Source: an uncultured bacterium (lineage in GTDB: Bacteria > Electryoneota > AABM5-125-24 > Hatepunaeales > Hatepunaeaceae). Taken from it: DNA of 24,694 bases. A program made the position numbers and the translations under genes. The notes beneath the pieces were generated by a model, which was given only the letters and a program-made list of their open reading frames with translations, was not told where the DNA came from and ran no database searches. How positions within the stretch are numbered: the stretch's first letter is position 1; each line of letters begins with the position of its first letter. Where the stretch lies: the NCBI GenBank assembly GCA_964497555.1, contig CAZCEM010000001.1:1-24694 (forward strand). The letters are read 5' to 3'. Positions 2 through 16,140 of the stretch are shown here, piece after piece.

Positions 2-850
2 ATAAATCCCGCCAAAATTGGGGCTGTCTATGTTGGCTCCGAATCCCATCCCTATGCCGTGAAGCCAACCGGCGCCACCCTCGCCGAAGCTATCGGAGCG
101 GTTCCCGATGTTCACACTGCCGACTTTGAATTCGCCTGCAAGGCTGGTTCAGAATCCATGTACGTAGCTTATTCGCAGGTAAAAGCCGGCTTAATCGAAT
201 ATGGTATCGGCTGCGGTGCGGACACCTCGCAGGGCGCGCCGGGTGATGCGTTGGAATACTCGGCTTCCGCAGGCGCGGCTGCTTTTATCTTCGGCGCTCA
301 GGACGTTATCGCTCGAGTTATTGAAACCTTCTCATTCACCACTGATACGCCCGACTTCTGGCGACGCGAACACCAACACTACCCGCAGCACGGAGGTCGT
401 TTTACCGGTGATCCTGCTTATTTCAAGCATACTCTCGGTGCGGCTAATGGTGTTATGGCCAAAGCCAATATGACCGCTAAGGATTTCGACTATGCGGTCT
501 TCCATCAGCCGAACGGCAAATTCCCTATGATGGCGGGGCAGAAACTGGGCATTCCTAAAGAGAAGATCGAGACTGGCTGGCTGGTGCCTTGGCTGGGCAA
601 TACTTACTCCGGCGCGTCTCCGCTGGGTCTCACTGCGGTGCTGGACGTCGCCAAGCCTGGCAGCGTCATTCTGATGGTGTCCTTTGGCTCGGGCGCTGGT
701 TCTGACGCCTTCATCTTCGAGGTTCTGGACGGCATCCAGGACAAGCAAGACCGTGCTCCCAAGACGCGCCCTCAGTTAGACGAGAACAAGATTTATCTTG
801 ACTACGGCCGGTATGCCAAGTTCCGCGGCAAGATCCTGCGTAACCAGTAA
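2..850 (+). CDS. Archaeal-type hydroxymethylglutaryl-CoA synthase, 5'-truncated by the window edge
   Basis: The frame is open from base 2 ([23 protein letters not shown]), so GTG at 59 is not the true start. Motifs [19 protein letters not shown] (catalytic Cys), [10 protein letters not shown] (His), GNTYSG and SFGSGAGSD match the archaeal HMGCS family. Confidence 0.9.
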
Positions 851-867
851 CCAAGGAGACCTATTTA

Positions 868-2028
868 ATGAGAGAAGTTGCTGTAATCGGCGTCGGGATG
901 CACAAGTGGGGCGAGCTGTGGGATATGTCCCTGCGGAACATGTTCCTTTTAGCGGCTCATAATGCCATCGCGGACGCCGGCGTTGACCATATAGATTCGA
1001 TGTACGTAGGCTGCATGTCGTGCGGACTGTTCGCGGCTCAGGAGCACATTGGCTCGCTGCTGGCGGACTATCTCGGCGTGACCCCGATCCCGGCTATGCG
1101 TGTGGAAAGCGCCTGTGCTTCAGGCGGAGCTGCCGTTCGCTTAGGCTGGATGGAAGTGGCTTCCGGCATCTCCGACATCGTGCTGGTCGGGGGCGTGGAA
1201 AAGATGACCGACATAACAGGCGACGAAGCCACTTTTACGCTTTCAACCGCGGCTGACACCGAATGGGAAGGCTACCAAGGCGTTACCTTCCCCGGTCTGT
1301 ACGCTATGATGGCTCGCGCTCACATGGAAAAGTACGGCTCGACCATGGAACAGTTTTCGCTGGTGTCGGTGAAGAACCACGCCAACGGGACTTTGAATCC
1401 CTACGCCCAATATCCCTTCCCGGTTACATTGGAAGCAGTAATGAATTCCACCAAGGTTGCTGAACCCTTGCGGCTTCTGCATTGCTCGCCGATTACCGAC
1501 GGCGCTGCGGCGGCGATTCTTTGCCCACTGGATTTAGCCAGGCAGAAGTTCAAGAACCATCCACTGACGGTCATAACCGGCTCCGGCATGGCTACCGACA
1601 CTATCGCCCTTCACTCCCGCGCGGACTTAACCACCATTAAGGCAGCTACCATAGCCGCAAAGAAGGCTTATGCCCTGGCGGGTGTGGGTCCCCGCGACAT
1701 TGACTTCGCTGAGGTGCATGACTGCTTCGCCAATGCGGAAGTGATGGTCACTGAAGCCATTGGCTTCTTTGAAGCCGGCGACGGCGGTCCGGCGGTTCAG
1801 CGCGGTGACACCACCCGTGATGGTAAGCTGCCGATCAACACCTCCGGTGGTTTGAAATCAAAGGGACACCCAGTTGGCGCAACTGGCGTGGCGCAGATTA
1901 TAGAAGTAGTCGAACAACTACGCGGTGAAGCGGGCAAGCGTCAGATCAAGAAAGCCCATCGCGGTCTGGCTCAGAACATGGGCGGCAGCGGCGGCAGCTC
2001 CGTAGTTCATATCCTCGAGAGGCGATAA
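868..2028 (+). CDS. Archaeal/SCP2-type acetoacetyl-CoA thiolase (partner of HMGCS and DUF35)
   Basis: Motifs ESACASGG (Cys), GGVEKM, EVHDCF and [23 protein letters not shown] at about 852. Sits between HMGCS and DUF35. Confidence 0.9.
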
Positions 2029-2030
2029 AC

Positions 2031-2420
2031 ATGAAGATAAGATCACCTCGTTACCATCGCGAAATACCGCAGCGTTATCGCCTTGAAGCGGAGAAGACGT
2101 CCTCCGGTGTTACGTACTATCCCCCGCGTCCGGTATATCCGAATGGTGAGAAGGGCGAGAAGGTTATTTTAGCCGATCACGGTAAAATAGTTACATTTAC
2201 CGTGATTCACACTCCACCCAAGGAGCATTCCGATTTTTCGCCCTATGGATTGGCGATAGTCGAGCTGGACGACGGCATGCGCATCACAGTACAGCTCGCT
2301 GACGTAGCCGACCTTTCGACCATTACCACCGGCATGAGGGTGCGGCTGGAATTCCGGCGCATCCGTACCGAAGGTGAGGAAGGCTTGCTCTGTTACGGTC
2401 ATAAAGCTGTGCTGGAATAG
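2031..2420 (+). CDS. DUF35-family (rubredoxin-like/OB-fold) scaffold protein, lacking the CxxC zinc motifs
   Basis: Family-like segments PRYHREIPQRYRL, YYPPR, GKIVTFTVIH, PYGLAIVELDDG, GMRVRLEFRRI and YGHK. Starts 2 nt after the thiolase stop. Confidence 0.85.
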   Translation: MKIRSPRYHREIPQRYRLEAEKTSSGVTYYPPRPVYPNGEKGEKVILADHGKIVTFTVIHTPPKEHSDFSPYGLAIVELDDGMRITVQLADVADLSTITTGMRVRLEFRRIRTEGEEGLLCYGHKAVLE

Positions 2421-2440
2421 TCTTTCTTAAGTGCACTTCA

Positions 2441-2486
2441 CCTGCTTTTAGAGGGTGGACTGTTAAGTCCGCCCTCTGAGAGCAGG
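2441..2486 (+). terminator. Long stem-loop ending the HMGCS-thiolase-DUF35 unit (terminator or stability element)
   Basis: Arms 2441-2460 and 2467-2486 pair over 20 bp with three G.U wobbles. No clear U-tract follows. Confidence 0.5.
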
Positions 2487-2620: not shown

Positions 2621-4240
2621 TTGCGCCTCGTGAAAAGAATACAATCCCAAATTGATCCGCGCTCTGAGGAGTTTCAAGCAAATCGGGACGCCATGTTATC
2701 AACTGTGGGGCAGCTCCGTGAGCGCCTGAATCTGGTGAAACAGGGCGGTCCGCCTCAACACGTCGAGCGCCATAAAAAACGCGGCAAGCTCACTGCGCGT
2801 GAGCGCATTGACCGCCTGATAGACCCCGACACGCCCTTCCTCGAATTCAGCGCCCTGGCTGCCAACGGCATGTACAACGACGACGCTCCTTGCGCGGGGC
2901 TGGTCACCGGTGTGGGAGTGGTGCACGGCCGGGAGGTGCTGATTATATCCAACGACGCGACGGTCAAGGGTGGGACCTACTACCCCATAAGCATTCGCAA
3001 GCACGCCCGCGCGCAGGAAATCGCATTGGAGAACAACCTGCCCTGCGTTTATCTGGTGGACTCGGGGGGAGTGTTCCTGCCCCTGCAGGACGGGGTGTTT
3101 CCCGACAAGGATCATTTTGGGCGGATTTTCTACAATCAGGCGGTGTTGTCCGCTGCTGGAATTCCCCAGCTTTCAGCCGTGTTGGGATCCTGTACTGCGG
3201 GAGGGGCTTATGTGCCCGCAATGTCCGATGAGACGGTGATCGTTCGCAAGCAGGGAACTATCTTCATCGGCGGGCCGCCGCTGGTGAAGGCGGCTACCGG
3301 CATAGAGGTATCGGCCGAAGACCTGGGCGGCGCGGATGTGCATTGCCGTATCTCAGGCGTCAGCGACTACTACGCGCTGAACGACGAGCACGCCCTGCAG
3401 ATACTACGGGACATCATCGAGAACCTGAACCGTCCACCAAAATTCGAGTTGGAGCGTGACACGCCTGAAGATCCGTATTACGAACCGAACGAGTTATATG
3501 GCGTCATCCCTGCCGACATCCGCAAACCCTTTGACGTCCGGGAAGTAATCGCCCGGGTTGTCGATGGCAGCCGGTTCAGCGAGTTTAAAGAATTGCACGC
3601 GACCACGCTGATTACAGGCTTCGCTCGAATCATGGGCTATCCGGTGGGGATCGTGGCCAATAATGGAGTGCTGTTCGGCGAGTCGGGGCGCAAGGGCGCT
3701 CATTTCATCGAACTGTGCGCCATGCGGAAGATACCACTCATCTTTCTGCAGAATATCACTGGATTCATAGTCGGCAAGGAGTACGAACACAGCGGCATCG
3801 CCCGCGATGGCGCCAAAATGATCCATGCCGTGGCTAACGCCCAGGTGCCTCGATTTACTATAGTGATCGGCGGTTCTTACGGCGCGGGCAATTACGCCAT
3901 GTGCGGGCGTGGCTATTTTCCCCGGTTGATGTGGATGTGGCCCAATTCACGTATCTCCGTGATGGGCGGTGAGCAGGCGGCTAATGTGTTGTTACAGGTT
4001 AAAATGGAGCAGATGGAGAAGCAGGGCTTGCCGCCGATGAGCCTTGAGGAGCAGGAAGCCTTCAAGAAGCCGACACTGGATAAATACGAGCACGAAGGCA
4101 GCCCTTATTACGCCACCGCGCGTCTGTGGGACGACGGCATCTTGGACCCGCTGGATACCCGCTCGGCTCTGGGGCTGGCGATTTCCATGTCCCTGAACCA
4201 GCCGATACCCGATTATAAGATGGGTATTTTCAGGATGTAG
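2621..4240 (+). CDS. liuB: 3-methylcrotonyl-CoA carboxylase, carboxyltransferase (beta) subunit
   Basis: Motifs [41 protein letters not shown] and [14 protein letters not shown]; 539 aa; TTG start. Confidence 0.9.
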
Positions 4241-4256
4241 AAGGAGGAGCGATGGG

Positions 4257-4706
4257 ATGGATTTGACGGCTAACATTGCGAGCATTCTTGGATTAGTTCT
4301 CTCGATTCTTATCCTTTTGTATTCCGGTACGATCAAGACAGCAGTGAACAATGCTAAAAGTGATCTTATCGGAGTTATAGGTAGAGAAGAGGTAATAGTC
4401 CAGATTGCTCACACTATCACAAAGGTTGAGAAATCTTCTGCATTGTTGACAATACCTGACCAGGCGGTCCTTGCCTCAGTTCTCTTGGAGGAGGCTCTCT
4501 CGGAGTTGATTTATTACATCGAGCGATGGCGTGATTCACTATCTCCAGAAAGATATGAGGATCTACTGGCTTCTCATTTTAGCCTTGAAGATGTTAGAAA
4601 AAAACTGTCTTCGGGGAAAGGATCACTGAAGAGTTCAAGAGAGGCGATCCATTCATCGATTCTCACTTTAAAAGTCGTTGAAGCCTCACTTAGAAAGGTA
4701 GGGTAG
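4257..4706 (+). CDS. Hypothetical protein with one N-terminal hydrophobic (TM or signal) segment, low GC
   Basis: 149-aa ORF with RBS AAGGAGG at 4241-4247 and hydrophobic stretch IASILGLVLSILILLYSG. No recognisable motif. Confidence 0.65.
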   Translation: MDLTANIASILGLVLSILILLYSGTIKTAVNNAKSDLIGVIGREEVIVQIAHTITKVEKSSALLTIPDQAVLASVLLEEALSELIYYIERWRDSLSPERYEDLLASHFSLEDVRKKLSSGKGSLKSSREAIHSSILTLKVVEASLRKVG

Positions 4707-4711
4707 GTAAA

Positions 4712-5071
4712 ATGTCAGACATACATACCACTGCATTAGAAAAGCGTATTCAACTTGTCGAATCTCTCATTTCTGCGACGGGAAAGGACCGGATTCGTTG
4801 GCGGCGCGTCTCAGAGGATACCTTTGAAGCAATTGTCAAAGAGAAGGGATTTCGACTTTTCAGAGATGAGAATGGACTCCATTTGCATGTTTCACAATTC
4901 ATTAGTATGGGATTATCGGACTGGGATTCAATTCTAATAATGGATAGTGGATCTGAAGATTCTATTGACAGTGTTTTAAGAAGGCTCTGGCGATTTATCG
5001 CAGACCGATACGACACTGGGAAAGTTGACGAATTAATTGACTTTCTCACTGGGAGCGGTGTTCTCCAATAG
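4712..5071 (+). CDS. Hypothetical soluble protein, low GC
   Basis: 119-aa ORF starting 5 nt after the previous stop, with GGTAGG upstream. No recognisable motif. Confidence 0.65.
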   Translation: MSDIHTTALEKRIQLVESLISATGKDRIRWRRVSEDTFEAIVKEKGFRLFRDENGLHLHVSQFISMGLSDWDSILIMDSGSEDSIDSVLRRLWRFIADRYDTGKVDELIDFLTGSGVLQ

Positions 5072-5090: not shown

Positions 5091-5867
5091 ATGAATACAA
5101 TTAATATTGAAAAGCAACTCCATTTCGCCCGCCTGACCCTCAACCGCCCCGACGTCCGCAACGCCTTCGACGAGCTGATGATCGCCGAGATCACTGAGGC
5201 GATGGAGTCGTTAAGCCGGGACGAAGCGGTGCGGGTAGTGGTCATCACCGGCGCGGGCACGGCTTTTTCAGCGGGCGCGGACATCAACTGGATGAAGCGG
5301 CTGGGTGAAGCTGATTTCGAGGAAAACTACCGCGACGCGCTGGGGCTGGCGGGAATGCTGGACGCCATTTACCGCTGCCCGAAAGCCACCATCGCCCGCG
5401 TGAACGGCCCCACTATCGGCGGCGGCTCTGGTATCGTTGCCGCTTGCGATATCGCTGTGGGTGATCCGAGCGCGTTCTTCAGCTTCAGCGAGGTGAAGAT
5501 CGGTCTGGTGCCGGCGTGTATCGGTCCCTACGTCATCCGCAAGGTCGGTGAAGGACGAGCGCGAGAGTTATTCATCTCCGGTCGCAGGATATGCGCCGCA
5601 GAAGCAGAACGGTTGGGTCTGCTTAATGAGGTCGCGGAGGAAGGCAAACTGGACGCTGCGGTCGATGCTATCGTCGCGCGGCTGCTGAGTTCCGGACCGC
5701 AGGCGATAATAATGGCGAAGGAACTGACGCGGAACGTGCCGTCGATGAGCCGGGAACAGTACATCGAATACACTGCCCGCTTGATCGCCAATATGCGCAC
5801 CAGCCCCGAAGGACGCGAAGGCACCAGAGCTTTTCTTGAGAAGCGCAAACCGAAGTGGAGTGAATAA
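5091..5867 (+). CDS. liuC: Crotonase-family enzyme, probably methylglutaconyl-CoA hydratase
   Basis: Motifs LTLNRPDVRNAF, FSAGADI, GGGSGIVAACD, FSEVKIGLVPACI and EGREGTRAFLEKRKPKW. ATG at 5091 is preferred over 5037, which overlaps the previous ORF. Lies between the MCC subunits. Confidence 0.8.
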   Translation: MNTINIEKQLHFARLTLNRPDVRNAFDELMIAEITEAMESLSRDEAVRVVVITGAGTAFSAGADINWMKRLGEADFEENYRDALGLAGMLDAIYRCPKATIARVNGPTIGGGSGIVAACDIAVGDPSAFFSFSEVKIGLVPACIGPYVIRKVGEGRARELFISGRRICAAEAERLGLLNEVAEEGKLDAAVDAIVARLLSSGPQAIIMAKELTRNVPSMSREQYIEYTARLIANMRTSPEGREGTRAFLEKRKPKWSE

Positions 5868-5955: not shown

Positions 5956-7476
5956 TTGAAGAAGTACTTCAACAAGATTCTGATCGCCAATCGCGGCGAG
6001 ATCGCCATCCGAGTCATACGCGCCTGCCGCGAACTGGACATCCCAACGGTGGCGGTGTACTCGGAGCCGGATGCTGCCGCCATGCATGTAAGGGAAGCGG
6101 ATGAAGCGGTCCTCATCGGCCCCGCGCCGCCGTCGGAGAGCTATCTCAACCAAGCTCGTATATTCCAGGCGGCTCATGAGCACGGCTGCGACGCGGTGCA
6201 TCCCGGCTACGGCTTCATGGCCGAAAACGCCTCCTTCGCTCGTCGCTGTGCTGAGGAAGGACTGACTTTCATTGGACCTTCGCCTGAAGCCATCACTTTG
6301 TTGGGCGACAAGGTCGCTTCCCGCCAGACCATGTCCAGCGCGGGTGTGCCGGTCATTCCAGGTGTGGACGATACTAGTCTTACCGACGCGGAACTGATAA
6401 AAGCCGCCGATAGAATTGGCTATCCCGTGCTCATCAAAGCCGCCGGTGGCGGCGGTGGCAAGGGCATGAGGGTGGTGCGAACGCCTGATGACTTTCAAGC
6501 CTCACTGGACGGGGCGCGACGCGAAGCCCAATCAGCCTTTGGCAATCCCACCGTCTTCCTCGAGCGATTTCTGGACAATCCTCGCCACATCGAATTCCAA
6601 ATCTTTGGCGACCAGCACGGCAACCGGGTGCATCTGTTCGAGCGCGAATGTTCCATCCAGCGTCGTCATCAAAAAATCATCGAGGAAACTCCCTCACCGG
6701 CGCTCGAAGAGGATTTGCGTCGGCGCATGGGCGAAACGGCCGTCAAGGTGGCGCAAACCGCCAACTACACCAACGCAGGGACGGTTGAGTTTTTGCTGGA
6801 CAAGGAGCGAAATTTCTACTTTCTCGAAGTGAATACCCGCATACAGGTCGAACATCCGGTGACCGAAGAAGTGCTGGGCGTAGATCTGGTGGTGGAGCAA
6901 ATCCGAGTGGCTGCCGGGGAGAAGCTATCCTGGTCGCAAGCTGACTTGAAGCAGCGAGGACACGCCCTCGAATGCCGGATCTACGCCGAAGACGCCGCAG
7001 CCGGCTTCCTGCCCGCTGCCGGTAAAGCCTTCGTCGTAGTGAGTCCCTCCGGTCCTGGGGTGCGCTTCGACTATGGATTAGAATCAGGGGACGATGTGAC
7101 GGTTTATTACGACCCCATCATCGGCAAGCTGATCACCAAAGGTGTAAACAGAAAATCATCCATCCGACGCATGGCCAAGGCGCTGGAGGAAATGGCCATT
7201 CTGGGTTTGACCACTAATATCGATTTCCTTAAAGAAGTGCTCGAACATCCGGCCTTCGCTGCCGGGGATCTACATATAGGCTTCTTAGACGAGAACCTGC
7301 CTCATTGGAAACCGGCGCCGCTCTCTGAGAAAGAGCGGCTGTTGGCGCTGGCATTGGCAGGCATGGCTGAGAGTCGCACGGTTGCGGCCGCGATGTCAAC
7401 CGGTGAAACATCCAGACTGCCTGAACCCTGGCAGACGCTGGGACGATGGGAAATCTGCGGAGGGAGCGGCCGGTGA
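5956..7476 (+). CDS. Biotin carboxylase subunit of methylcrotonyl-CoA carboxylase (N-terminal part of a split alpha subunit)
   Basis: Motifs KILIANRGEIA, HPGYGFMAEN, KAAGGGGGKGMR, RECSIQRRHQK, FLEVNTRIQVEHPVTE and YYDPIIGKLI. No biotinylation motif. Confidence 0.9.
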   Translation: MKKYFNKILIANRGEIAIRVIRACRELDIPTVAVYSEPDAAAMHVREADEAVLIGPAPPSESYLNQARIFQAAHEHGCDAVHPGYGFMAENASFARRCAEEGLTFIGPSPEAITLLGDKVASRQTMSSAGVPVIPGVDDTSLTDAELIKAADRIGYPVLIKAAGGGGGKGMRVVRTPDDFQASLDGARREAQSAFGNPTVFLERFLDNPRHIEFQIFGDQHGNRVHLFERECSIQRRHQKIIEETPSPALEEDLRRRMGETAVKVAQTANYTNAGTVEFLLDKERNFYFLEVNTRIQVEHPVTEEVLGVDLVVEQIRVAAGEKLSWSQADLKQRGHALECRIYAEDAAAGFLPAAGKAFVVVSPSGPGVRFDYGLESGDDVTVYYDPIIGKLITKGVNRKSSIRRMAKALEEMAILGLTTNIDFLKEVLEHPAFAAGDLHIGFLDENLPHWKPAPLSEKERLLALALAGMAESRTVAAAMSTGETSRLPEPWQTLGRWEICGGSGR

Positions 7477-7994
7477 AAAAGAAGCTGCTCTTCGCAGGTG
7501 AAGTATATGAGATCGAGCTTACTGTCAATAACGGCGACGCGAGAGCGGTCAGCAGAGGCATGGAATTGGTGCTGCCAATTCTGGCGCGTCGTGATGAGTT
7601 GATATTGCTCCGTCAGGACGGAGCGACTCTTAAAGCTTACATTCACCGCGACAAGGACAGGATATACGTACGAGTCGCCGGAAGGCACTGGGTTTTCGAG
7701 GACGTAACCCGCCGTGACGAACATGGCGCCGCAGGAGTGGGTGGAGCGGTTGACAACGTCGTGACTCCCATGCCCGGCTCGGTCATCAAGGTGCTGGTCG
7801 CGCCCGGTGAAAGAGTCAAAGCTGGAAAGACGCTGGTGATAGTCGAAGCCATGAAGATGGAGAACGAAGTCAAAGCCCCGGCGGACGTGGTGATAGCCAA
7901 GGTCAACGTGAAGCCCGGTCAACAAGTCAGCGCCGGGCAGGTGTTGGTGGAATTCGAGGCGTCGGATGGCGAAGGCGGCTCCGCCACTAATTGA
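7473..7994 (+). CDS. Biotin carboxyl carrier subunit with N-terminal beta-rich (BT-like) region
   Basis: Contains TPMPGSV and EAMKMENEV (biotinyl Lys). GTG at 7473 overlaps the upstream TGA (GTGA), with GGAGG at 7459-7463. Confidence 0.88.
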   Translation: MKKKLLFAGEVYEIELTVNNGDARAVSRGMELVLPILARRDELILLRQDGATLKAYIHRDKDRIYVRVAGRHWVFEDVTRRDEHGAAGVGGAVDNVVTPMPGSVIKVLVAPGERVKAGKTLVIVEAMKMENEVKAPADVVIAKVNVKPGQQVSAGQVLVEFEASDGEGGSATN

Positions 7995-9237
7995 AACAGC
8001 TCTACGAAGCGACGAATTAAACAAGTGCGTTACCTGTGGATTATGCCAGGCGGTGTGCCCGACCTTCCTCTATTCGGGCAGCGAAGGATTAACCGCCCGC
8101 GGCAAGATTGTGATGATGCGAGCGATGCTGGATGGAGCTTTGGCGCTGTCGCCGTCCCTCGCTGCGCTCTTTGACGACTGCCTGACCTGCTACGCCTGCC
8201 AATCCGTGTGTCCATCGGGGGTGCAGACCGAGCGCCTGTGGACCGCTGCAAGGCAAGATTTGGCTGACTGCTATTCGACCAGCCAATTGAAACGATGGGG
8301 ACTTAAGTGGACCATAGGCAAGCCTTGGGTGTTTCGACTACTAGTCAGACTAGGCGGATTGTTCGGCTTCGCTCCCGACGACCCCCAGGGCGTCGATCTG
8401 GATGCTCTGTTGCCGCTGCCCTTCCGTGGTGCTCCAGCGCTAAGAAAATTGCGGGAGGAGTACCCGCCGGTGGGCGAGTCGCGCGGCAGTGTGGGGATGT
8501 TGCTCGGTTGCAGCGTCAACCTCTATGAGCCACATGTCGCAGAAGGAGCAATCAAGCTGCTGACAGCCGCGGGCTATCGGGTGTTGATACCAAAGAACCA
8601 GGTATGCTGCGGCGCTCCCGCGATAAACAACTCGGCTTGGACCACCGCCCGCAAACTGGCGCTGCGGACCGCTCGATTGTTCAACGGATTAAATGTCGAG
8701 GTGGTGACCTCCTGCGACGCCACCTGCGCCGGGGCGATGATTAACGACTATCGGGAACTGTTCCTCGGCGAAAAAATAGAACTGGCAGAAGTGGAGCGGC
8801 TGGCGGCCAAAACCCGACAGTTGGGTCAGGTGCTGCAAACCGCAGTCGATTCCGGCTGGCTTCGCTTTGATACATGCGACGCTAAGGTGACAGTTCACGA
8901 CTCCTGCCACTCGACTCATTACCGGCAAGGGAAGGTCAACTGGCGGAAGGTCATCCAGCGTGTTCCTGGCGTGGTGATTGTGGAAATGGCTGACGCCGGT
9001 CATTGCTGCGGTTTCGGCGGCAGCTACTCTTTCACTCACCGACGGGATTCAATGGCGATATCGGAGGTTAAGCTGCGCCATGCCATAGCCACCGGCGCGC
9101 AGGAGATTCTGGTGGGCTCTCCGGGCTGTGCGTTGCGGCTGCTGTCAACCCAGCGGGAAGTCCAGGCGAACGCAATAAAAATCCGGCATGCAGTAAATTT
9201 CCTGGCGGATCGGCTTGCTAATTCGATAATATATTAA
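7966..9237 (+). CDS. GlcF-like Fe-S oxidoreductase (two [4Fe-4S] ferredoxin motifs plus two CCG domains)
   Basis: Motifs CVTCGLCQAVCP, CLTCYACQSVCP, LLGCS, QVCCGAP, HDSCH, HCCGFGGSYS and GSPGC. Confidence 0.85.
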   Translation: MAKAAPPLIETALRSDELNKCVTCGLCQAVCPTFLYSGSEGLTARGKIVMMRAMLDGALALSPSLAALFDDCLTCYACQSVCPSGVQTERLWTAARQDLADCYSTSQLKRWGLKWTIGKPWVFRLLVRLGGLFGFAPDDPQGVDLDALLPLPFRGAPALRKLREEYPPVGESRGSVGMLLGCSVNLYEPHVAEGAIKLLTAAGYRVLIPKNQVCCGAPAINNSAWTTARKLALRTARLFNGLNVEVVTSCDATCAGAMINDYRELFLGEKIELAEVERLAAKTRQLGQVLQTAVDSGWLRFDTCDAKVTVHDSCHSTHYRQGKVNWRKVIQRVPGVVIVEMADAGHCCGFGGSYSFTHRRDSMAISEVKLRHAIATGAQEILVGSPGCALRLLSTQREVQANAIKIRHAVNFLADRLANSIIY

Positions 9238-9423: not shown

Positions 9424-10560
9424 ATGTTCTTGACAGAAGAACAAACGATGCTCCGCGACATGGTGCGGAATTTCGCCCAGAACGAAGTCAAGCCGCGGGC
9501 GGCGAAGATAGACCAGACCTGCGAGTTTTCTTGGGAAACAGCCAAGAAAATGGGCGAACTGGGGCTGATGGGCATCGTTTTCCCGGAAGAATACGGCGGC
9601 GCCGGCATGGACACCGTATGCTACGCCATCGCCGTCGAGGAACTCTCCCGCGTCTGCGCAGCCACCGGCATCACCCTGGCGGCGCATATTTCCCTGGGTG
9701 TCGCACCCATCTACGAATTCGGCAACGAGGAGCAAAAACGAAAGTGGCTGCCCTCCCTGTGTTCGGGCGAAATTCTCGGCGCTTATGGTCTGACCGAGCC
9801 TAACGCCGGTTCCGACGCCGGCGGCACTGAAACCACCGCCATTCGTCAAGGGAACAACTTCGTCGTCAACGGCTCCAAGCGTTTCATCACCAACGCCTCA
9901 GTATCAAATATATACAGCTTCACGGCTGCTACCGACAAATCCAAAGGCACCAAGGGCATCAGCGCCTTTCTGGTCGAGAAGGGAACCCCCGGCTTTTCTA
10001 TTGACCGGAAGGAGCACAAGCTCGGAATCCGCGGGTCGGACACCGCCGGACTGCTGTTTGAAGACTGCGTCATCCCCGCCTCCAACATGCTGGGCAAGGA
10101 AGGCGAAGGCTTCAAGCAATTCCTCTATATCCTCGACGGCGGTCGGATCTCCATCGGCGCGATGGCGCTGGGCATCGCCCAAGGAGCGTTGGACGAGGCG
10201 TTGAAGTACTCGCAGGTGCGAATGCAATTCAAGCGGCCGATATCATCCTTTCAGATAAACCAGTTCAAGCTGGCGGACATGGCGACCTGGGTTGAAGCCA
10301 GCCGGCATCTGGTCTATCATGCCGCGAGGCTGAAGGATGCCGGCAAGCCCTACATCAAGGAATCCTCCATGGCGAAGCTGTTCGCCTCGGAAACCGCCAC
10401 CAAGTGCGCTGAGATGGCCGTTCAGATTCACGGCGGCTACGGCTACTGCCGAGACTATCCCGTCGAGCGTATGTGGCGGGATGCTAAAATCACGGAGATC
10501 GGCGAAGGCACCTCAGAAATCCAAAGGCTGGTCATCGCCCGCCAAATCCTTAATTTGTAA
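9424..10560 (+). CDS. Acyl-CoA dehydrogenase, probably short/branched-chain (Bacillus YngJ-like; isovaleryl-CoA candidate)
   Basis: Motifs [43 protein letters not shown] and [11 protein letters not shown]. Substrate is inferred from context. Confidence 0.88.
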
Positions 10561-10569
10561 TTCGTAATT

Positions 10570-11364
10570 ATGGAGTTCCACGCCCTTCAAGACGGCTGGA
10601 TCAAGATTAACGCCCAGGATTTTCCTATGGGCAAGAAATTGTTCCAGTCCGACACGTTGTTAATCGGCGTAAATCAGCTTCTGATTCGAATTCACAACCA
10701 GACGGTGCTTCTTGACGCCGGCTTGGGCAATAAATGGAATCTTACAGAAACCGGCTTAATCGGATTTAAGAAGCCACGTCAACTGATTCCCGAACTTAGA
10801 AAGGTCGGCGTCAGCGTCAACGACGTCAACACAGTCATTCTGAGCCATCTGCATCTCGACCATGCTGGAGGATGCACGTATCGAGATGAATCCAGCTTAG
10901 TTAAGCCAGTCTTCCCGAATGCATTATATGTTTGTCAAAATGAGGAGCTGAGTTTTGCCCGGGATCCCGATAACCAATTCAGCGGAGATTATCGACCGGA
11001 GGATTTCGAACCGCTTCTCACTGCCGGGCAGTTGAAGACGATTGAAGGCGCCGGTCAGGTTGTCAAAGGCGTGAAGGTCTTCCCCACAAAGGGACACAGC
11101 CCCGGTCATCAGGTGATTCTGGCGGAGGATGTTGACAATGCGGTCTTTTTCCCCGGCGATTTGTTCGCCGTCAAGGAACACACCAATCTGACAATCTTCA
11201 CCCAGTACGATTATGAGCCGCGAAAACTGATGGATGAGCGGCGCATCTGGCTGGACCGGATGGAGAAGAACGCCTGGATATGCTGCTTTTGCCACCATTT
11301 CCGCTATCCGCTTGGCAGATACTTTAACGGCAGGGTAATCCCCTGCGCCAATGAAGATAATTGA
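10570..11364 (+). CDS. Metallo-beta-lactamase-fold hydrolase (YtnP-like scaffold)
   Basis: Motifs LLDAGLG, SHLHLDHAGG (HxHxDH), GHSPGHQ, FPGDL and a C-terminal His. Confidence 0.85.
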   Translation: MEFHALQDGWIKINAQDFPMGKKLFQSDTLLIGVNQLLIRIHNQTVLLDAGLGNKWNLTETGLIGFKKPRQLIPELRKVGVSVNDVNTVILSHLHLDHAGGCTYRDESSLVKPVFPNALYVCQNEELSFARDPDNQFSGDYRPEDFEPLLTAGQLKTIEGAGQVVKGVKVFPTKGHSPGHQVILAEDVDNAVFFPGDLFAVKEHTNLTIFTQYDYEPRKLMDERRIWLDRMEKNAWICCFCHHFRYPLGRYFNGRVIPCANEDN

Positions 11365-11396
11365 GCCTGAAGGTCAAAAGTTTAAACGGAGGAACA

Positions 11397-12590
11397 ATGC
11401 GCGAAGTAGTAATAGTATCAGCGGTCCGAACGCCTATTGGCTCGTTCAACGGCGTTTTGGCTTCGGTCCCGGCGGTAAAGCTGGGCGCCGCTGCAATAAA
11501 AGGAGCATTGACTAAAGCGGGCCTCAAGCCCGACGAAGTCTGTGAAGTTCTTATGGGGCAGGTGCTGCAGGGCGGCATCGGCCAGGCGCCGGCTCGGCAG
11601 GCCTCGATTTACGCGGGATTGCCGGCATCAGTGCCCTGCACTACTGTTCACAAGGTTTGTGGTTCCGGACTGAAAGCTGTCATGCTGGGCGCGCAGCAGA
11701 TAATGCTGGGCGAAGCCGACGTGGTCATTGCGGGGGGGATGGAATCCATGTCCAACGCCCCTTATTATCTTTTCCAAGCTCGCTCAGGTTATCGAATGGG
11801 CGACGGGAAGCTGGTGGACGGCATGATTTTCGATGGGCTGTGGGACCCTTACAGCGACATGCACATGGGCATGTGCGGCGAAATCTGCGCTGAGGAATAT
11901 AAAATCACCCGCGAGGAGCAGGACGCCTTCGCGATTGAGAGCTACAAACGCGCGCAGACTGCCGTTACAAACGGCAAGTTTGCGGCGGAAATCGTGCCGG
12001 TGGAAATTCCTCAGCGCAAAGGCGACCCCATTGTCATCAGCGATGATGAAGAGCCTTTCAAGACTAAATTTGACAAAATTCCCGAGCTTCGTCCCGCCTT
12101 CAAGAAGGACGGCACCGTCACCGCCGCCAACGCCTCGAAGATAAACGACGGCGCTTCAGCGGTTGTCTTAATGGCGGCGGAAGACGCCCATAAAAGGGGT
12201 TTGAAACCGCTGGCGAAAATTCATGGCTCCGGCACCTTCGCTCAGGATCCGAAGTGGTTCACCACCGCGCCAGCGGAAGCCATACGCCGTGCCCTGAAGA
12301 AGACCCACAAAGCCAACGGCGACGAACTGACGTTGGATGGCATCGGACTGTTCGAAATTAATGAAGCCTTTGCGGTGGTTGGCTTGGTCAACATCAAACT
12401 GCTGAGCCTCGACCCAGCCAAGGTGAACGTGAACGGCGGCGCCGTGGCGCTGGGGCATCCCATCGGCGCCTCCGGCGCCCGCATCCTTACCACGCTGGTT
12501 CACGCCATGAACGACCGCAACGTCCATTGGGGCGTGGCGGGCATCTGTCTCGGCGGCGGCGAAGCCGTGGCGATGGTGGTTGAAAAATAA
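11397..12590 (+). CDS. atoB: Acetyl-CoA C-acetyltransferase (classical thiolase II)
   Basis: Motifs RTPIGSFNG, KVCGSGLKA, GGMESMS, INEAFA, GHPIGASGARIL and CLGGG. ATG at 11397 follows GGAGGA at 11388-11393. Confidence 0.92.
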   Translation: MREVVIVSAVRTPIGSFNGVLASVPAVKLGAAAIKGALTKAGLKPDEVCEVLMGQVLQGGIGQAPARQASIYAGLPASVPCTTVHKVCGSGLKAVMLGAQQIMLGEADVVIAGGMESMSNAPYYLFQARSGYRMGDGKLVDGMIFDGLWDPYSDMHMGMCGEICAEEYKITREEQDAFAIESYKRAQTAVTNGKFAAEIVPVEIPQRKGDPIVISDDEEPFKTKFDKIPELRPAFKKDGTVTAANASKINDGASAVVLMAAEDAHKRGLKPLAKIHGSGTFAQDPKWFTTAPAEAIRRALKKTHKANGDELTLDGIGLFEINEAFAVVGLVNIKLLSLDPAKVNVNGGAVALGHPIGASGARILTTLVHAMNDRNVHWGVAGICLGGGEAVAMVVEK

Positions 12591-12674: not shown

Positions 12675-12886
12675 GCATCATTCCAACGAAAGCAGGAATC
12701 CAGCAACTCCTATAATTCCAGTATGTTTTCTGGATTCCAGCTTTCGCTGAAATTGTCATGGTGGCTCCCCCATCATGGAGAATGAAAATACCCCCATTTT
12801 GTATTTTCCCCCTGCGAGCAGGGGGGAAATGTCGGGCGAGACGCCCGACCTACACGTTTAAGGTCGGGTTCGGAGACCCAACCTAC
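12675..12886. repeat. Composite palindromic mosaic: module A, two further hairpins and two tandem GTAG-type REP units
   Basis: Module A spans 12675-12754, followed by a catggtgg/ccatcatg hairpin and a ttccccctgc/gcaggggggaa hairpin. REP units at 12831-12853 and 12862-12886 read GTAG plus hairpin on the - strand. Segment 12741-12853 recurs inverted at 24582-24694. Confidence 0.85.
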
Positions 12887-13031
12887 ACAATCGTGGGGCT
12901 GTTTTCTGGAAAATGATGCCTTCGAGGCGTTCAGCCTAAAATGGATTTATCGAACAGACTCTGAAAGTTCGTCCTTCAAGAATTGCTGCAAGTTTATTTT
13001 CCAACTACAGTTAAAAAAAGGAGATAAAGAC

Positions 13032-13880
13032 ATGGCTATCAAGAAAATTGCCGTCATCGGCGGCGGCACTATGGGCAACGGCATCGTTCACGTCGCGGCT
13101 CAGTTCGGTTTCGACGTGACCTTGGTGGAGGTGAATCAACTTCTCATCGACCGCGCCCTTAAGACCATATCCGGCAACTGCGACCGTCAGATTAAAAAGG
13201 AAAAGATGACTGAAGCCGAGAAGATGGATTTGTTGTCGCGCATAAATGCGTCGCTGGACATAAAGGACTGCTCAGACGCCGACATCGTCATCGAGGCGGT
13301 TATTGAGGAGATAAACCTTAAAAAAAGCATCTTCAAGCAGCTTCAGGAAATCTGCCCCGAAGCGGTACTCCTCGCCAGCAATACTTCCTCAATTTCCATT
13401 TCCACCCTCGCCGCGCAAACCAAACGTCCGAGCCAAGTCATCGGCATGCACTTTATGAATCCTGTGCCGATGATGAAGCTGGTGGAGGTAGTGCGCGGAA
13501 TTGAGACCTCCGATGAAACCGTGCAAAAGGTCACCGACCTCGCCAAAAGGCTGGGCAAGACGCCGGTTGTAGTGAACGATTACCCCGGCTTCGTCGCCAA
13601 CCGCATCCTCATGCCCATGATAAACGAGGCGGTCTATTGTCTGATGGAAGGCGTCGCCGACGCGGAAGCCATCGACACGGTGATGAAACTGGGCATGGCG
13701 CATCCGATGGGTCCCTTGTTCCTGGCGGACTTGATAGGACTGGACGTATGTCTTGCCATCATGGAAGTCCTACACCACGACCTCGGCGACAGCAAATACC
13801 GCCCCTGCCCGTTGCTGCGCAACAAGGTGGCGGCTGGTCATCTGGGTCGCAAATCCGGCAAAGGCTTCTATAATTATTGA
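13032..13880 (+). CDS. hbd: 3-hydroxybutyryl-CoA dehydrogenase
   Basis: Motifs [50 protein letters not shown] and [18 protein letters not shown]. Confidence 0.93.
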
Positions 13881-13918
13881 TGTTGCGGCGGGACGGTCCG
13901 GAATCTGCAAGGAATAGG

Positions 13919-13947
13919 TTGCTTGAAAATCTGCGCCTGCTTATATT
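13919..13947 (+). promoter_or_regulatory. Candidate sigma70 promoter for the acyl-CoA dehydrogenase-ilvE-nusB region
   Basis: TTGCTT (13919-13924), 17-nt spacer, TATATT (13942-13947). Confidence 0.5.
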
Positions 13948-14054
13948 TTCCTTAGGATGTCCGGATCGTCCCGGCAGCCTTTGGAGTACAATCCACCTGA
14001 CAGAAAAGCAATCAGGGGGAATGTCCGCTCACTCTGGTTAACTTGGAAGAGACA

Positions 14055-15194
14055 ATGGATTTTCAATTCACTGAAACGCAGCAGATGGTCCGACAGACCA
14101 TCCGGGATTTCGCTGAAACCGAACTTGCCCCCGGCGCCGCTGAACGCGACGAAAAGGAGATTTATCCCCGCGAAGCCATCCAGAAACTGGGCGAACTCGG
14201 CTTCATGGGAGTGACCGTCCCGGAAGAGAACGGCGGCTCAGGGCTGGATATGGTCTCTTACGCGATAGCGATTGAAGAACTCGGTCGAGTGGAAGCCTCA
14301 GTCGCCATAATTGTGTCGGTTCAGAACTCGCTGCTGTGCTATCCGCTGGAGAAGTTCGCCAGCGAAGAGCAAAAGAACCGTTTTCTGAAGCCTCTGGCTT
14401 CGGGCGCGAAACTGGGCGCGTTTGCGCTTACTGAACCGGATTCCGGGTCCGACGCCGGCGACATGAAAACCGTGGCTGTCAAGGACGGAGATCATTACAT
14501 CATCAACGGCTCGAAGTGCTTCATCACCTCTGGCGCGAACTGCAACATGATGTTGACCTTCGTAGTTACCGACGCCACCAAAGGCTCGAAGGGCAGCTCC
14601 GCGTTCATGATCGAGAAAGGCACGCCCGGTTTCAATGTGGTTCGCCGTGAAGAAAAGCTCGGCATCCGTGCCACCGACACCGCGCTCATCTCGTTTGAGG
14701 ATTGCCGCGTGCCCGCTGCGAATATGATTGGCACCGAGGGAATGGGTTTAAAGATTGCCCTCACCGCGCTTGACAGCGGCCGCATCGGCGTTGCCAGTCA
14801 GGCGCTGGGCATCGCTCAGGGGGCGTTTGAGCAGGCGGTAAAGTACAGCAAGGAGCGGGTGCAGTTCGGCAAGCCGATAGCAGCCTTTCAGGCTACTCAG
14901 TTCAAGATTGCCCGAATGGCGACCGAGATAGAAGCGGCTCGCTTGCTGCTGTATTCAGCCGCCGCGAAAAAGGACCGGGGGGAGCGGTTCACGAAAGAAG
15001 CCGCAATGGCAAAGTTATATTGTTCGGAAGTCGCCGTGAGGACCGCGCTCGAGGCGGTGCAGATACACGGGGGCTACGGTTACATCAAAGAATACCCCGT
15101 CGAACGCTTCCTGCGCGACTCAAAGATCACTACGATCTACGAGGGAACCAGCGAAATCATGCACTTGGTGATAGCGGGAACAGTGCTCGGTTGA
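14055..15194 (+). CDS. Acyl-CoA dehydrogenase, short-chain/butyryl-CoA type (MmgC/AcdA-like)
   Basis: Motifs [43 protein letters not shown] and [11 protein letters not shown] at 14055 is preferred; TTG at 14043 is the alternative. Confidence 0.9.
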
Positions 15195-15210
15195 GGGGAG
15201 AGGAGGACGA

Positions 15211-16140
15211 TTGTCTGCATTTGACGAATCCGCCAAGCTATGGTTCTCCGGTCGCATTATCGACTGGAAGGACGCCCATATACATGTGATGAGCCATGTG
15301 GTTCATTACGGCTCCGCTGTGTTTGAGGGTCTTCGCTGCTACAATACACCGCGAGGTTCAGCGGTTTATCGGCTGCGTGAGCATGTCCAGCGGCTGTTCA
15401 ACTCCGCGAAAATCTACAGAATGAACATCCCCTTCACCTTTGAGGAAGTCTTCAATGCCTGCATAGACGTGATTAAAGTCAACGGATGGAAGGAGGCTTA
15501 TATCCGCCCGTTAGTCTTCCGCGGCTATGACAGTTTAGGCGTGGCGCCGGGTAAATGTCCCATAGAGGTGGTGATAGGCGTGTGGAAATGGGGCAAGTAC
15601 TTAGGCGATGAAGCGCTCGCCAGCGGCGTGGATGTCCGCGTTTCCTCCTGGAGCAGATTGGCGCCTAACACCATGCCGGCGCTGGCAAAGTGCGGCGCGA
15701 ACTACATGAATTCGCAGCTCATCAAGATGGAAGCATTGGTTGACGGCTACGTCGAAGGCATCGCCTTGGACCAAAACGGGCACGTCAGCGAAGGCTCAGG
15801 TGAGAATATCTTTCTGGTGGTGAACGGTGAAATTCTGACGCCGCCGCTCAGCGCCTCGGTGCTTCCAGGCATCACCCGCGCCACTGTCTTCACTTTGGCT
15901 GAGGAGTTGGGATACAAAGTCCGCGAGCTTAACATCCCTCGTGAGATGCTGTACATCGCGGACGAGGTCTTTTTTACCGGCTCGGCGGCTGAGGTCTCCC
16001 CAATACGCTCCATCGACCGAATCACCGTTGGAGCGGGACATAGGGGACCTATAACCGAGAAGATACAAAAAAGGTTCTTTGAATACGTCAACGGAGAGCT
16101 GCCCGACACGCACGGCTGGTTGACATACATTTACAAGTAA
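15211..16140 (+). CDS. ilvE: Branched-chain amino acid aminotransferase
   Basis: Motifs HYGSAVFEGLRCY, YIRPLVF, AKCGANYMNSQL (PLP Lys), EGSGENIF, LPGITR, DEVFFTGSAAEV and GPITEKIQ. Confidence 0.94.
   Translation: MSAFDESAKLWFSGRIIDWKDAHIHVMSHVVHYGSAVFEGLRCYNTPRGSAVYRLREHVQRLFNSAKIYRMNIPFTFEEVFNACIDVIKVNGWKEAYIRPLVFRGYDSLGVAPGKCPIEVVIGVWKWGKYLGDEALASGVDVRVSSWSRLAPNTMPALAKCGANYMNSQLIKMEALVDGYVEGIALDQNGHVSEGSGENIFLVVNGEILTPPLSASVLPGITRATVFTLAEELGYKVRELNIPREMLYIADEVFFTGSAAEVSPIRSIDRITVGAGHRGPITEKIQKRFFEYVNGELPDTHGWLTYIYK

Follow-up and report, generated by a model that had tools for sequence, protein, structure and literature searches.

A lyase-less HMG-CoA junction linking leucine-catabolic genes to an archaeal-type HMG-CoA synthase complex in an uncultured bacterium

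Bacterial gene clusters for the catabolism of leucine and isovalerate, such as Pseudomonas liuABCDE and Bacillus yngJIHGFE, contain HMG-CoA lyase. The alternative isovaleryl-CoA pathway of myxobacteria comprises MvaS, LiuC, AibA/AibB and AibC, while haloarchaea and trypanosomatids route leucine through HMG-CoA to mevalonate. The isovalerate cluster of Desulfococcus multivorans also includes the lyase, HmgL (PMC5109826). We describe here a junction at which genes of this kind adjoin an archaeal-type HMG-CoA synthase (HMGCS) complex and no lyase is present; the literature searched yielded no description of such an arrangement.

The locus belongs to a metagenome-assembled genome (MAG) of an uncultured freshwater bacterium (3.07 Mb, 656 contigs, 89% complete). 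The window, meaning the whole stretch of 24,694 nucleotides analysed, is an entire contig; base 1 is the contig start and no sequence lies 5' of it. The start of the contig falls inside the HMGCS gene, so that ∼66 N-terminal residues are lacking and the TIGR00748 match opens only at profile position 67. In L003, the closest relative (82% identity), the string opens with HMGCS and is preceded by recJ. An earlier note on this DNA had listed the synthase complex, carboxylase, hydratase, dehydrogenase and ilvE genes as co-oriented, with 88 nt between hydratase and biotin carboxylase, and both statements hold. The order on the + strand, with IlvE last, is as follows.

2..850, + strand, archaeal-type HMGCS (TIGR00748 418 bits, cut-off 353)
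868..2028, + strand, SCP-x/archaeal-type acetoacetyl-CoA thiolase (NF004720 532 bits)
2031..2420, + strand, DUF35 scaffold protein (PF01796; OB fold kept, four zinc-ribbon cysteines lost)
2621..4240, + strand, methylcrotonyl-CoA carboxylase (MCC) beta, carboxyltransferase (PF01039 502 bits)
4257..5071, + strand, two small ORFs (149 aa, 119 aa) in a low-GC insertion between MCC beta and hydratase
5092..5867, + strand, crotonase-family hydratase, putative 3-methylglutaconyl-CoA hydratase (PF00378 184 bits)
5956..7476, + strand, biotin carboxylase (BC), part of a split MCC alpha (Biotin_carb_N, CPSase_L_D2, Biotin_carb_C)
7446..7994, + strand, biotin carboxyl carrier protein (BCCP), part of the split MCC alpha (PF00364, AMKM biotinylation motif)
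7966..9237, + strand, soluble 2x[4Fe-4S] + 2xCCG Fe-S oxidoreductase, GlcF/GlpC/HdrD-like (PF02754, PF13183)
9424..10560, + strand, Bcd/SCAD-like acyl-CoA dehydrogenase 1 (Pfam ACAD domains)
10570..11364, + strand, metallo-beta-lactamase-fold (MBL) hydrolase (PF00753; conserved in L003 and L103)
11361..12590, + strand, biosynthetic/degradative type II acetoacetyl-CoA thiolase (Thiolase_N 341 bits, TIGR01930 439 bits)
13032..13880, + strand, 3-hydroxybutyryl-CoA dehydrogenase, Hbd (NF004474 440 bits, cut-off 408)
14043..15194, + strand, Bcd/SCAD-like acyl-CoA dehydrogenase 2 (Pfam ACAD domains)
15211..16140, + strand, branched-chain amino acid aminotransferase IlvE (NF005146 438 bits, cut-off 279)

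The complex of M. thermolithotrophicus (6ESQ) is the best PDB match for all three proteins of the HMGCS–thiolase–DUF35 trio, and the adjacency of the three genes is kept. HMGCS scores 370 bits against chain I and retains the catalytic Glu (GSESHPY), Cys (EFACKAG) and His (VFHQPNGKF) motifs; the thiolase scores 390 bits against chain A, with Cys83, the HDCF motif and GH334 conserved; and DUF35 scores 81 bits against chain E. An MvaS-type synthase was ruled out (TIGR01835 68 bits, cut-off 360). The ribbon region of DUF35 has no cysteine in the window, L003 or L004 and four in most relatives. A model of the thiolase–DUF35 complex scored 0.93, as against 0.00 for the best of three controls. Of 80 solved complexes 58 attain this mark, as do 2 of 110 mismatched pairs; contacts agreed to at least 98% between runs and partner pLDDT was at least 88. 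The confidently predicted interface is formed by OB-fold residues 54–88, not by the lost zinc ribbon, although the model may simply reproduce a similar complex that has already been solved. Unlike the archaeal complex, the trio is found in a bacterial host that has the MEP route and lacks HMG-CoA reductase, so that the known biosynthetic sink is missing; its DUF35 lacks the zinc ribbon, its genes lie within a leucine-catabolic operon and we propose for it the opposite flux.

By its sequence, the carboxyltransferase is clearly of the MCC type: it scores 758 bits against P. aeruginosa MCC beta (3U9R), 741 against human MCC beta and 457 against GCC, as compared with ∼260–290 for PCC beta and 169 for GcdA. 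BC gives accC-type matches of 627–642 bits. The hydratase ORF is open from 5037, with a likely start at the ATG at 5092; its top NCBIfam matches, PRK07468 (269 bits) and gamma-carboxygeranoyl-CoA hydratase (227 bits), are under the curated cut-offs, none of which the hydratase reaches, and its position immediately 3' of MCC beta is kept in relatives. The insertion that separates the two genes here has a GC content of 42%, as against ∼57–59% in its flanks, and neither L003 nor any other locus compared has it; it is outside the conserved operon. One of its ORFs (149 aa) has a hydrophobic helix at the N-terminus, and neither matched a Pfam, NCBIfam or PADLOC family.

The earlier note had called the dehydrogenase YngJ-like, but neither copy is of the YngJ/LiuA type: against C. 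difficile Bcd (5OL2) dehydrogenases 1 and 2 score 506 and 433 bits, and against isovaleryl-CoA dehydrogenase (IVD) 305 and 283 bits. Dehydrogenase 1, 80% identical to its copy in L003, is nevertheless a candidate isovaleryl-CoA dehydrogenase. The adjoining Fe-S oxidoreductase, which also resembles the LdhH C-terminal region and GlcF and is conserved in L003, is a candidate electron outlet for the dehydrogenase and ETF; a search for a hydrophobic segment in it found none. The earlier note passed over this protein, as it did the MBL protein, thiolase II, Hbd and the two-ORF insertion. Like the liu, yng and D. multivorans clusters, the string combines an MCC-type carboxyltransferase, BC/BCCP, a crotonase-type hydratase and acyl-CoA dehydrogenase, here with IlvE in addition. 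It differs from them in the splitting of MCC alpha, in the Bcd/SCAD-like rather than IVD-like dehydrogenases, in the trio directly upstream of MCC beta and in the absence of lyase from the genome and its family.

Linkage of the trio to the carboxylase genes is widespread. Of the 80 loci that hold the closest HMGCS relatives, ∼45 have the trio beside MCC beta, hydratase and BC, recurrently in the order trio–MCC beta–hydratase–BC–BCCP. These belong to at least eight labelled phyla, including Zixibacteria, Aminicenantes/Acidobacteriota, Coatesbacteria, Glassbacteria, Ignavibacteria, Planctomycetota, Eisenbacteria, KSB1 and Myxococcota-labelled MAGs. Mapped on the trio tree, linkage changes 6 times, compared with 12.7 in shuffles. 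Among 79 genomes of the window's phylum, the trio is present in 49 of the 66 that are MCC-positive and in none of the 13 that are MCC-negative. The linkage is not due to chance, lying far beyond the chance level. Together with the gene identities and the phyletic patterns described next, it is what the analysis establishes directly.

The window had been said to contain no HMG-CoA lyase, and none turned up there or elsewhere when the entire MAG was searched in six frames; the only HMGL-like match, on contig C271, is an isopropylmalate/citramalate-synthase-like protein of 483 aa. Searches of the MAG for HMG-CoA reductase and diphosphomevalonate decarboxylase found neither; it does encode IspG, of the MEP route. 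All 16 genomes of the window's family, up to 100% complete, have the trio, MCC and IspG, and none of them, including some that are 96–100% complete, has the lyase or the reductase. The 66 MCC-positive genomes of the phylum divide into 48 with the trio only, 12 with lyase only, one with both and five with neither, four of the last being only 65–84% complete. Trio and lyase are thus nearly mutually exclusive in the phylum, with the reservation that related genomes are not independent and that the lyase-type state occurs in only about two of its lineages. In f4, a sister family that has the lyase, the genes form a classic hydratase–BC–lyase–MCC beta cluster, the lyase immediately preceding MCC beta. 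Family-I CoA transferase was found in 4/4 genomes of f4 and in 0/49 trio genomes. Complete chromosomes from other phyla show the same pattern: all three (G005, G025, G028) carry the operon and IspG and lack lyase and reductase. The lyase-less junction that the earlier note had picked out is therefore real and conserved.

We propose, with a probability of roughly 0.55, that the HMGCS–thiolase–DUF35 complex runs in reverse as a CoA-dependent substitute for the lyase, so that leucine or isovalerate would be broken down to acetyl-CoA without that enzyme. IlvE would convert leucine to 2-oxoisocaproate, and a ferredoxin-dependent 2-oxoacid oxidoreductase encoded elsewhere would yield isovaleryl-CoA (VorA/PorA-like oxidoreductases and EtfA are encoded elsewhere in the genome). 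3-Methylcrotonyl-CoA would be formed by a Bcd-like dehydrogenase, whose electrons would leave via ETF and the Fe-S oxidoreductase, and would be carboxylated at the expense of ATP by the split MCC with its carboxyltransferase, BC and BCCP; the crotonase would convert 3-methylglutaconyl-CoA to HMG-CoA. The complex would then act opposite to its archaeal role, producing acetyl-CoA and acetoacetyl-CoA from HMG-CoA and CoA, and acetoacetyl-CoA would be channelled to the thiolase to give two acetyl-CoA, free acetoacetate never being formed. The free-energy change of the thiolase reaction is ∼+26 kJ/mol and that of HMGCS is similar in size and opposite in sign, the two together being near equilibrium; endergonic reversal of HMGCS could be pulled by exergonic thiolysis. 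If this is correct, the pathway nets three acetyl-CoA, a gain of one thioester over lyase and CoA transferase, and energy is saved. What we infer in this scheme is which substrates dehydrogenase and hydratase use, which way the flux runs and that the complex is reversible. HMG-CoA cleavage by a reversed synthase complex does not figure in the earlier note.

We favour reverse operation because the complementarity of lyase and trio fits it best. The best matches of the trio to 6ESQ, the retained catalytic residues and the MCC-type carboxyltransferase support it, as do the linkage kept across phyla, the confinement of the trio to MCC-positive genomes and the predicted thiolase–DUF35 interface. 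No HMG-CoA sink other than the trio is apparent in the genome and its lyase- and reductase-free family, and no route for acetoacetate reactivation is apparent in the trio genomes. The catabolic context also fits: IlvE is in the string, the ATP-dependent BC is conserved and the Fe-S oxidoreductase adjoins a dehydrogenase. Counting against it, both dehydrogenases are nearer to reductively working Bcd enzymes than to IVD, the hydratase is below cut-off, the MAG is incomplete and a CitE-like acyl-CoA lyase is encoded on contig C618. Moreover, no HMGCS is known to run in reverse physiologically.

An unlikely and less parsimonious alternative is an anabolic shunt: HMG-CoA, made on the complex from acetyl-CoA, would be dehydrated by the hydratase, MCC working backwards would decarboxylate the product, perhaps with formation of ATP, and the 3-methylcrotonyl-CoA would be reduced by a Bcd-like enzyme to isovaleryl-CoA, for use as an iso-fatty-acid primer or for leucine synthesis via a ferredoxin-dependent synthase and IlvE. 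This would keep the complex in its known direction and suit dehydrogenases closest to reductive Bcd/AcrC/CarC-type enzymes, and lack of lyase would prevent a futile cycle. The conversion of HMG-CoA to isovaleryl-CoA in myxobacteria provides a precedent, in which HMGCS and a methylglutaconyl-CoA hydratase-like enzyme likewise meet at this node without lyase. The HMGCS here is, however, archaeal-type rather than MvaS-type, and neither this genome nor any other trio genome of the phylum encodes a CoA-transferase-family protein resembling AibA/B; in its stead there is a complete ATP-dependent MCC. The operon conserves BC, which is missing from dedicated decarboxylases of this family. MCC orthologues, 65–67% identical, are found in the classic lyase clusters of sister families, so the shunt must assume opposite directions for orthologues. 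LeuA-like and LeuB-like genes make a second leucine route unneeded, and oxidation is the better match for a dehydrogenase with an Fe-S oxidoreductase as its neighbour. It is similarly doubtful that trio and MCC genes are unrelated or loosely related in function, HMG-CoA being cleaved by a missed or non-homologous lyase (in the unassembled 11%, the CitE-like protein or the divergent HMGL-superfamily DRE-TIM protein on C271) and the trio serving, for example, acetoacetyl-CoA or HMG-derived metabolites. Four genomes (G011, G037, G045, G047) do have trio and lyase without reductase, so the trio can have another role. Nevertheless, lyase is missing from near-complete family members and from the three closed chromosomes, every trio genome of the phylum also has MCC and operon order is conserved across phyla; the CitE-like protein does not track MCC, since MCC-negative families have it and trio-positive genomes of family f7 do not.

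A chance neighbourhood of two unrelated operons, to which the 200-nt gap between DUF35 and MCC beta and the lack of decisive promoter or terminator signals in the window might point, is refuted by the conserved operon order and by the presence of MCC in 49/49 trio genomes. The earlier note had taken absent reductase, a lyase elsewhere and no conserved linkage as marks of such a neighbourhood; only the first was found. Its favoured idea, that HMG-CoA from leucine and acetyl-CoA feeds mevalonate for isoprenoids and quinones, is very improbable for this genome, where MCC and hydratase would bring leucine carbon to HMG-CoA beside HMGCS, as in haloarchaea and trypanosomatids, but reductase and lower mevalonate genes are missing, IspG is present and the family shows the same pattern. 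Reductase in the phylum is confined to family f3, which itself lacks IspG. The trio–MCC operon may, however, feed mevalonate in other, reductase-positive, MEP-negative lineages. Five genomes (G013, G017, G020, G024, G044) are reductase-positive and IspG-negative and have one archaeal-type HMGCS, located in the carboxylase operon; there the same operon with its single trio must run forward, and hence the operon as such does not dictate the reverse direction. Routing of leucine to mevalonate is probably realised in such relatives (e.g. L030, G013, G017, G044). In L030 a whole mevalonate operon abuts the trio–hydratase–carboxylase string, with diphosphomevalonate decarboxylase, a kinase and a fused HMG-CoA reductase–mevalonate kinase directly upstream of the trio.

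The genes that the earlier note had named between the HMG-CoA synthase (HMGCS) and ilvE are all present on the forward strand, including the 88-nt gap between the hydratase and the biotin carboxylase (BC), although several members of the string had been left unmentioned. The window is the entire contig C1 of a metagenome-assembled genome (MAG) of 3.07 Mb in 656 contigs, 89% complete with 1% contamination. Only four runs carry its DNA, from freshwater or sediment DNA, with no RNA run among them.

Features of the window from HMGCS to ilvE (coordinates, strand, feature)
2-850, +, archaeal-type HMGCS, cut by the contig end at profile position 67, with the N-terminal 66 residues missing
868-2028, +, SCP-x-type thiolase
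2031-2420, +, DUF35 protein (PF01796)
2621-4240, +, carboxyltransferase of the methylcrotonyl-CoA carboxylase (MCC) beta type
4257-5071, +, two small ORFs
5092-5867, +, crotonase (hydratase)
5956-7476, +, biotin carboxylase (BC domains)
7446-7994, +, BCCP (AMKM motif)
7966-9237, +, soluble 2x[4Fe-4S]/2xCCG oxidoreductase
9424-10560, +, Bcd-like acyl-CoA dehydrogenase 1
10570-11364, +, MBL-fold protein
11361-12590, +, type II thiolase
12591-13031, low-GC (46.5% GC) non-coding gap of 442 nt between thiolase II and hbd
13032-13880, +, Hbd
14043-15194, +, Bcd-like acyl-CoA dehydrogenase 2
15211-16140, +, IlvE

Downstream of ilvE lie the housekeeping genes nusB, secA and topA, then a xerC/D-like recombinase and a hibernation factor. 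The contig holds nothing upstream of base 1, where the earlier note had proposed to look, but in the closest relative (locus L003, 82% identity) recJ precedes the operon and HMGCS, there full-length (L003:9797-10849), is its first gene.

The first three genes, hereafter the trio, have their best solved relatives in the chains of the Methanothermococcus thermolithotrophicus thiolase/HMGCS/DUF35 complex (6ESQ/6ET9; 370 bits for HMGCS, 390 for the thiolase and 81 for DUF35). The HMGCS fragment is of the archaeal (short) type (TIGR00748, 418 bits against a cut-off of 353), scores far under the cut-off for the MvaS type (TIGR01835, 68 bits against 360) and keeps the catalytic Glu/Cys/His in motifs aligned to 6ESQ chain I; it is the only archaeal-type HMGCS of its genome. 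The adjoining thiolase, with its 390 bits to 6ESQ chain A, keeps Cys/His/Cys; none of 30 relatives departs from C83, H284-D-C286 or H334. DUF35 retains its OB fold (PF01796) and has no zinc ribbon, all four ribbon cysteines being replaced in the window (2031-2420), in L003 (L003:12028-12411) and in a locus of the same family whose record is labelled Calditrichaeota (L004, from genome G064; L004:12206-12583). Most DUF35 relatives retain the four cysteines (CxxC...CxxC); all four are also lost in L021, L023 and L034, and just one is left in L028, L074 and L079.

The thiolase and DUF35 were modelled as a pair, with the truncated HMGCS left out. The model scored 0.93, and the best of its three controls 0.00; the mark so reached is attained by 58 of the 80 complexes of solved structure and by 2 of the 110 mismatched pairs. 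At least 98% of contacts agreed between runs, with a partner pLDDT of at least 88. The predicted interface is formed by OB-fold residues 54-88 and not by the lost ribbon. Because a similar complex is already solved, the model indicates likeness to that complex rather than binding, and the known structure may itself explain the pass.

On the leucine side, the carboxyltransferase is of the MCC type, with 758 bits to the Pseudomonas aeruginosa and 741 to the human MCC beta; geranyl-CoA carboxylase reaches no more than 457 bits, PCC-type/MMCT enzymes no more than 294 and glutaconyl-CoA decarboxylase 169. MCC alpha function is split over two genes, BC and BCCP, the latter with its AMKM motif. The best models for the crotonase-fold hydratase, a candidate 3-methylglutaconyl-CoA hydratase (LiuC), namely PRK07468 and gamma-carboxygeranoyl-CoA hydratase, are both under cut-off; its position after MCC beta is conserved. 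The YngJ-type dehydrogenase of the earlier note did not survive comparison: both acyl-CoA dehydrogenases match Bcd/SCAD (506 and 433 bits) better than IVD (305 and 283 bits), and neither is classed as IVD-type. Elsewhere the genome encodes VorA/PorA-like 2-oxoacid:ferredoxin oxidoreductases and EtfA, with EtfAB on contig C79. No E1 component of BCKDH was found in it, only two 25-27-bit matches, and acetate kinase is represented there by a single partial 63-bit match.

The linkage of the trio to the MCC genes is real. We surveyed 80 loci that hold the nearest relatives of HMGCS (62-82% identity); their records are labelled Zixibacteria, Aminicenantes/Acidobacteriota, Coatesbacteria, Glassbacteria, Ignavibacteria, Planctomycetota, Eisenbacteria, KSB1 and Myxococcota. 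In about 45 of them the trio adjoins MCC beta and/or hydratase together with BC, which in nearly all cases follow immediately downstream in the order of the window, as the earlier note had thought worth checking; 14 have several kilobases of flank without these genes, and the remainder are too short for a call. Linked loci group together on the tree of HMGCS and thiolase, where the state changes 6 times as compared with 12.7 in shuffles. A variant operon in L030, L040, L057, L078 and L082 has the order trio-hydratase-BC-carboxyltransferase; its carboxyltransferase (605 aa in L030) shares no more than 32-33% identity with MCC beta, and its substrate may therefore differ.

The absence of HMG-CoA lyase, noticed originally in the window alone, extends to the whole genome, in which the sole HMGL-like match is a 483-aa IPMS/citramalate-synthase-like protein, and to all 16 genomes of its family (f1); the lyase model NF004283 finds nothing in the genome itself or in any of the 15 family relatives. 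Nor did we find HMG-CoA reductase (PF00368 or TIGR01240) or diphosphomevalonate decarboxylase in the genome, which carries IspG of the MEP pathway. HMGCS is its only recognisable HMG-CoA enzyme besides the hydratase. The convergence of leucine and acetyl-CoA on HMG-CoA for mevalonate synthesis, which the earlier note had favoured, is rejected for this organism on these grounds, and likewise for its family, where reductase is found in 0/16 genomes.

A census covered 79 species genomes of the phylum.

Occurrence of key genes among 79 species genomes of the phylum (gene, genomes, distribution)
MCC beta, 66/79, every family except f2 and f8
Trio (archaeal HMGCS), 49, MCC-positive genomes only; 0/13 MCC-negative
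HMG-CoA lyase, 13, f4 (4/4), one genus of f7, and genome G105
HMG-CoA reductase, 16, f3 only (16/16)
IspG, 59, all families but f3 (0/16)
Family-I CoA transferase, 12, f2 (MCC-negative) and the lyase family f4; 0/49 trio genomes

The 66 MCC-positive genomes divide into 48 with the trio only, 12 with lyase only, one with both and five with neither, four of these five being 65-84% complete. In the window's own family all 16 genomes, some of them 96-100% complete, have MCC, the trio and IspG, and lack lyase and reductase. Family f4 has the classic hydratase-BC-lyase-MCC beta cluster, in which the lyase stands directly upstream of MCC beta, the position that the trio occupies in the window. Family f3 has exchanged the MEP for the mevalonate route, the reverse of all other families.

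The most economical reading, to which we give slightly better than even odds, is that the route is catabolic and the trio complex runs in reverse. We infer this direction because HMGCS is the sole recognisable HMG-CoA enzyme besides the hydratase, because BC, which is ATP-dependent, is a conserved member of the operon, and because IlvE stands in the string, an Fe-S oxidoreductase lies beside a dehydrogenase, and VorA/PorA-like enzymes and EtfA are encoded elsewhere. The complex would convert HMG-CoA and two CoA to three acetyl-CoA, with thiolysis pulling the reversal of HMGCS through the channel, ATP-driven MCC pushing from upstream and acetyl-CoA consumption pulling from downstream; one more thioester would be kept than by lyase plus CoA transferase. 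The two half-reactions, HMGCS reversal and thiolysis, have energies of opposite sign and comparable size; their sum would lie near equilibrium, and mass action would set the direction.

The opposite direction, an anabolic shunt in which flux runs backwards to isovaleryl-CoA, is disfavoured: BC is conserved in the operon, AibA/B-like proteins are missing, the orthologous MCCs of sister families sit in classic lyase clusters, and the genome has LeuA-like and LeuB-like genes. It is also unlikely that a missed or analogous lyase cleaves HMG-CoA, since lyase is absent throughout the family and from three closed chromosomes of other phyla. A CitE-like protein was considered as a general alternative lyase and set aside, its distribution not tracking MCC.

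Beyond the phylum, 37 genomes carry the linked operon, two of them with lyase and nine with a strong reductase match; another three of the 37 have weak reductase-like matches (54-60 bits). Where the trio is unlinked, four of 13 genomes have lyase. Three closed chromosomes (G005, G025 and G028) combine the operon and IspG and lack lyase and reductase. Two findings tell against a simple version of the reverse reading. The first is that G013, G017, G020, G024 and G044 have the operon with a single archaeal-type HMGCS and are reductase-positive and IspG-negative; in such genomes the trio must run forward, and leucine and acetyl-CoA may plausibly converge there on mevalonate. In L030 the operon follows genes for diphosphomevalonate decarboxylase, for a kinase and for a reductase fused to a GHMP (mevalonate) kinase; the fusion gene is next to that of the decarboxylase and immediately precedes the trio (L030:4845-9138). 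The reductases of f3, Zixibacteria and L030 lie in open frames of ~750-830 aa. A distinct 'catabolic' HMGCS subfamily was not seen, since the trio tree mixes reductase-positive with reductase-negative genomes and requires 8 changes between them. One orthologous complex thus seems to serve both contexts, which fits a reversible machine. The second finding is that four genomes (G011, G037, G045 and G047) have trio and lyase and no reductase, so that the trio can serve yet another role.

Our boldest proposal, with a probability of about 0.5, is that the thiolase/HMGCS/DUF35 complex is reversible and displaced lyase in many MEP-using bacterial phyla as a CoA-dependent thiolytic system for HMG-CoA, yielding three acetyl-CoA and saving one thioester, or roughly one ATP, for each leucine or isovalerate, and that the same operon joins leucine and acetyl-CoA on mevalonate in reductase-bearing relatives.

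Among known systems, the archaeal complex feeds reductase and mevalonate, unlike that of this organism. With liu-type clusters the window shares the MCC-type carboxyltransferase (LiuB) and BC with a biotinylated carrier (LiuD, here two genes rather than one), but it lacks HMG-CoA lyase (LiuE) and an IVD-type dehydrogenase (LiuA/YngJ). The myxobacterial Aib shunt differs in its glutaconate-CoA-transferase-like decarboxylase AibA/AibB (PF01144), without a match in this genome, its family or any of the phylum's trio genomes, and in its bacterial MvaS-type HMGCS, which the archaeal-type enzyme of the window does not match. The anaerobic isovalerate cluster of Desulfococcus multivorans, unlike the window, employs lyase. 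All components belong to known families. Full-text literature searches turned up no account of the trio-MCC operon, of the pattern of replacement across whole genomes or of such a complex used in reverse, and no paper on reverse HMGCS in leucine catabolism.

If correct, our proposal would describe a new energy-conserving end to leucine/isovalerate catabolism, mattering most for anaerobes, MCC already costing one ATP, in which an enzyme held to be practically irreversible is driven backwards by substrate channelling. It would correct two systematic mis-annotations in MAG work, 'mevalonate pathway present' in reductase-less bacteria and 'leucine degradation incomplete' for want of lyase. With carriers among Zixibacteria, Aminicenantes, Ignavibacteria, Planctomycetota, KSB1 and the Calditrichaeota-labelled group of the window itself, the operon would also bear on the turnover of protein-derived carbon in many sediment and freshwater phyla.

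Counts from promoter and terminator scans of the window were not above those of shuffles, so that operon boundaries cannot be set by such scans, and no Rfam family reached its gathering score anywhere in the window. The gap at 12591-13031, with short ORFs only and no Rfam match, may divide two transcription units. Near the contig end (23061-24455) are the XerC/D-type tyrosine recombinase and the ribosome hibernation factor; the recombinase ORF overlaps the end of topA, and its true start is therefore probably later. The ORFs inserted at 4257-5071 between MCC beta and hydratase, of 149 aa (with an N-terminal hydrophobic helix) and 119 aa, have 42% GC and are absent from the closest relative and every other locus compared. 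They matched no Pfam, NCBIfam or PADLOC family, apart from one ZorA-like match (13.5 bits, E 0.006), and only unnamed clusters in the atlas; they look like a small foreign cassette within the operon. The gene for the genome's sole HMGL-superfamily protein, which is under all curated cut-offs, lies on contig C271 (L001:212-2673) and adjoins a 6-oxocyclohex-1-ene-1-carbonyl-CoA hydratase gene (TIGR03200, 504 bits), a neighbour that points to anaerobic benzoyl-CoA degradation in the organism.
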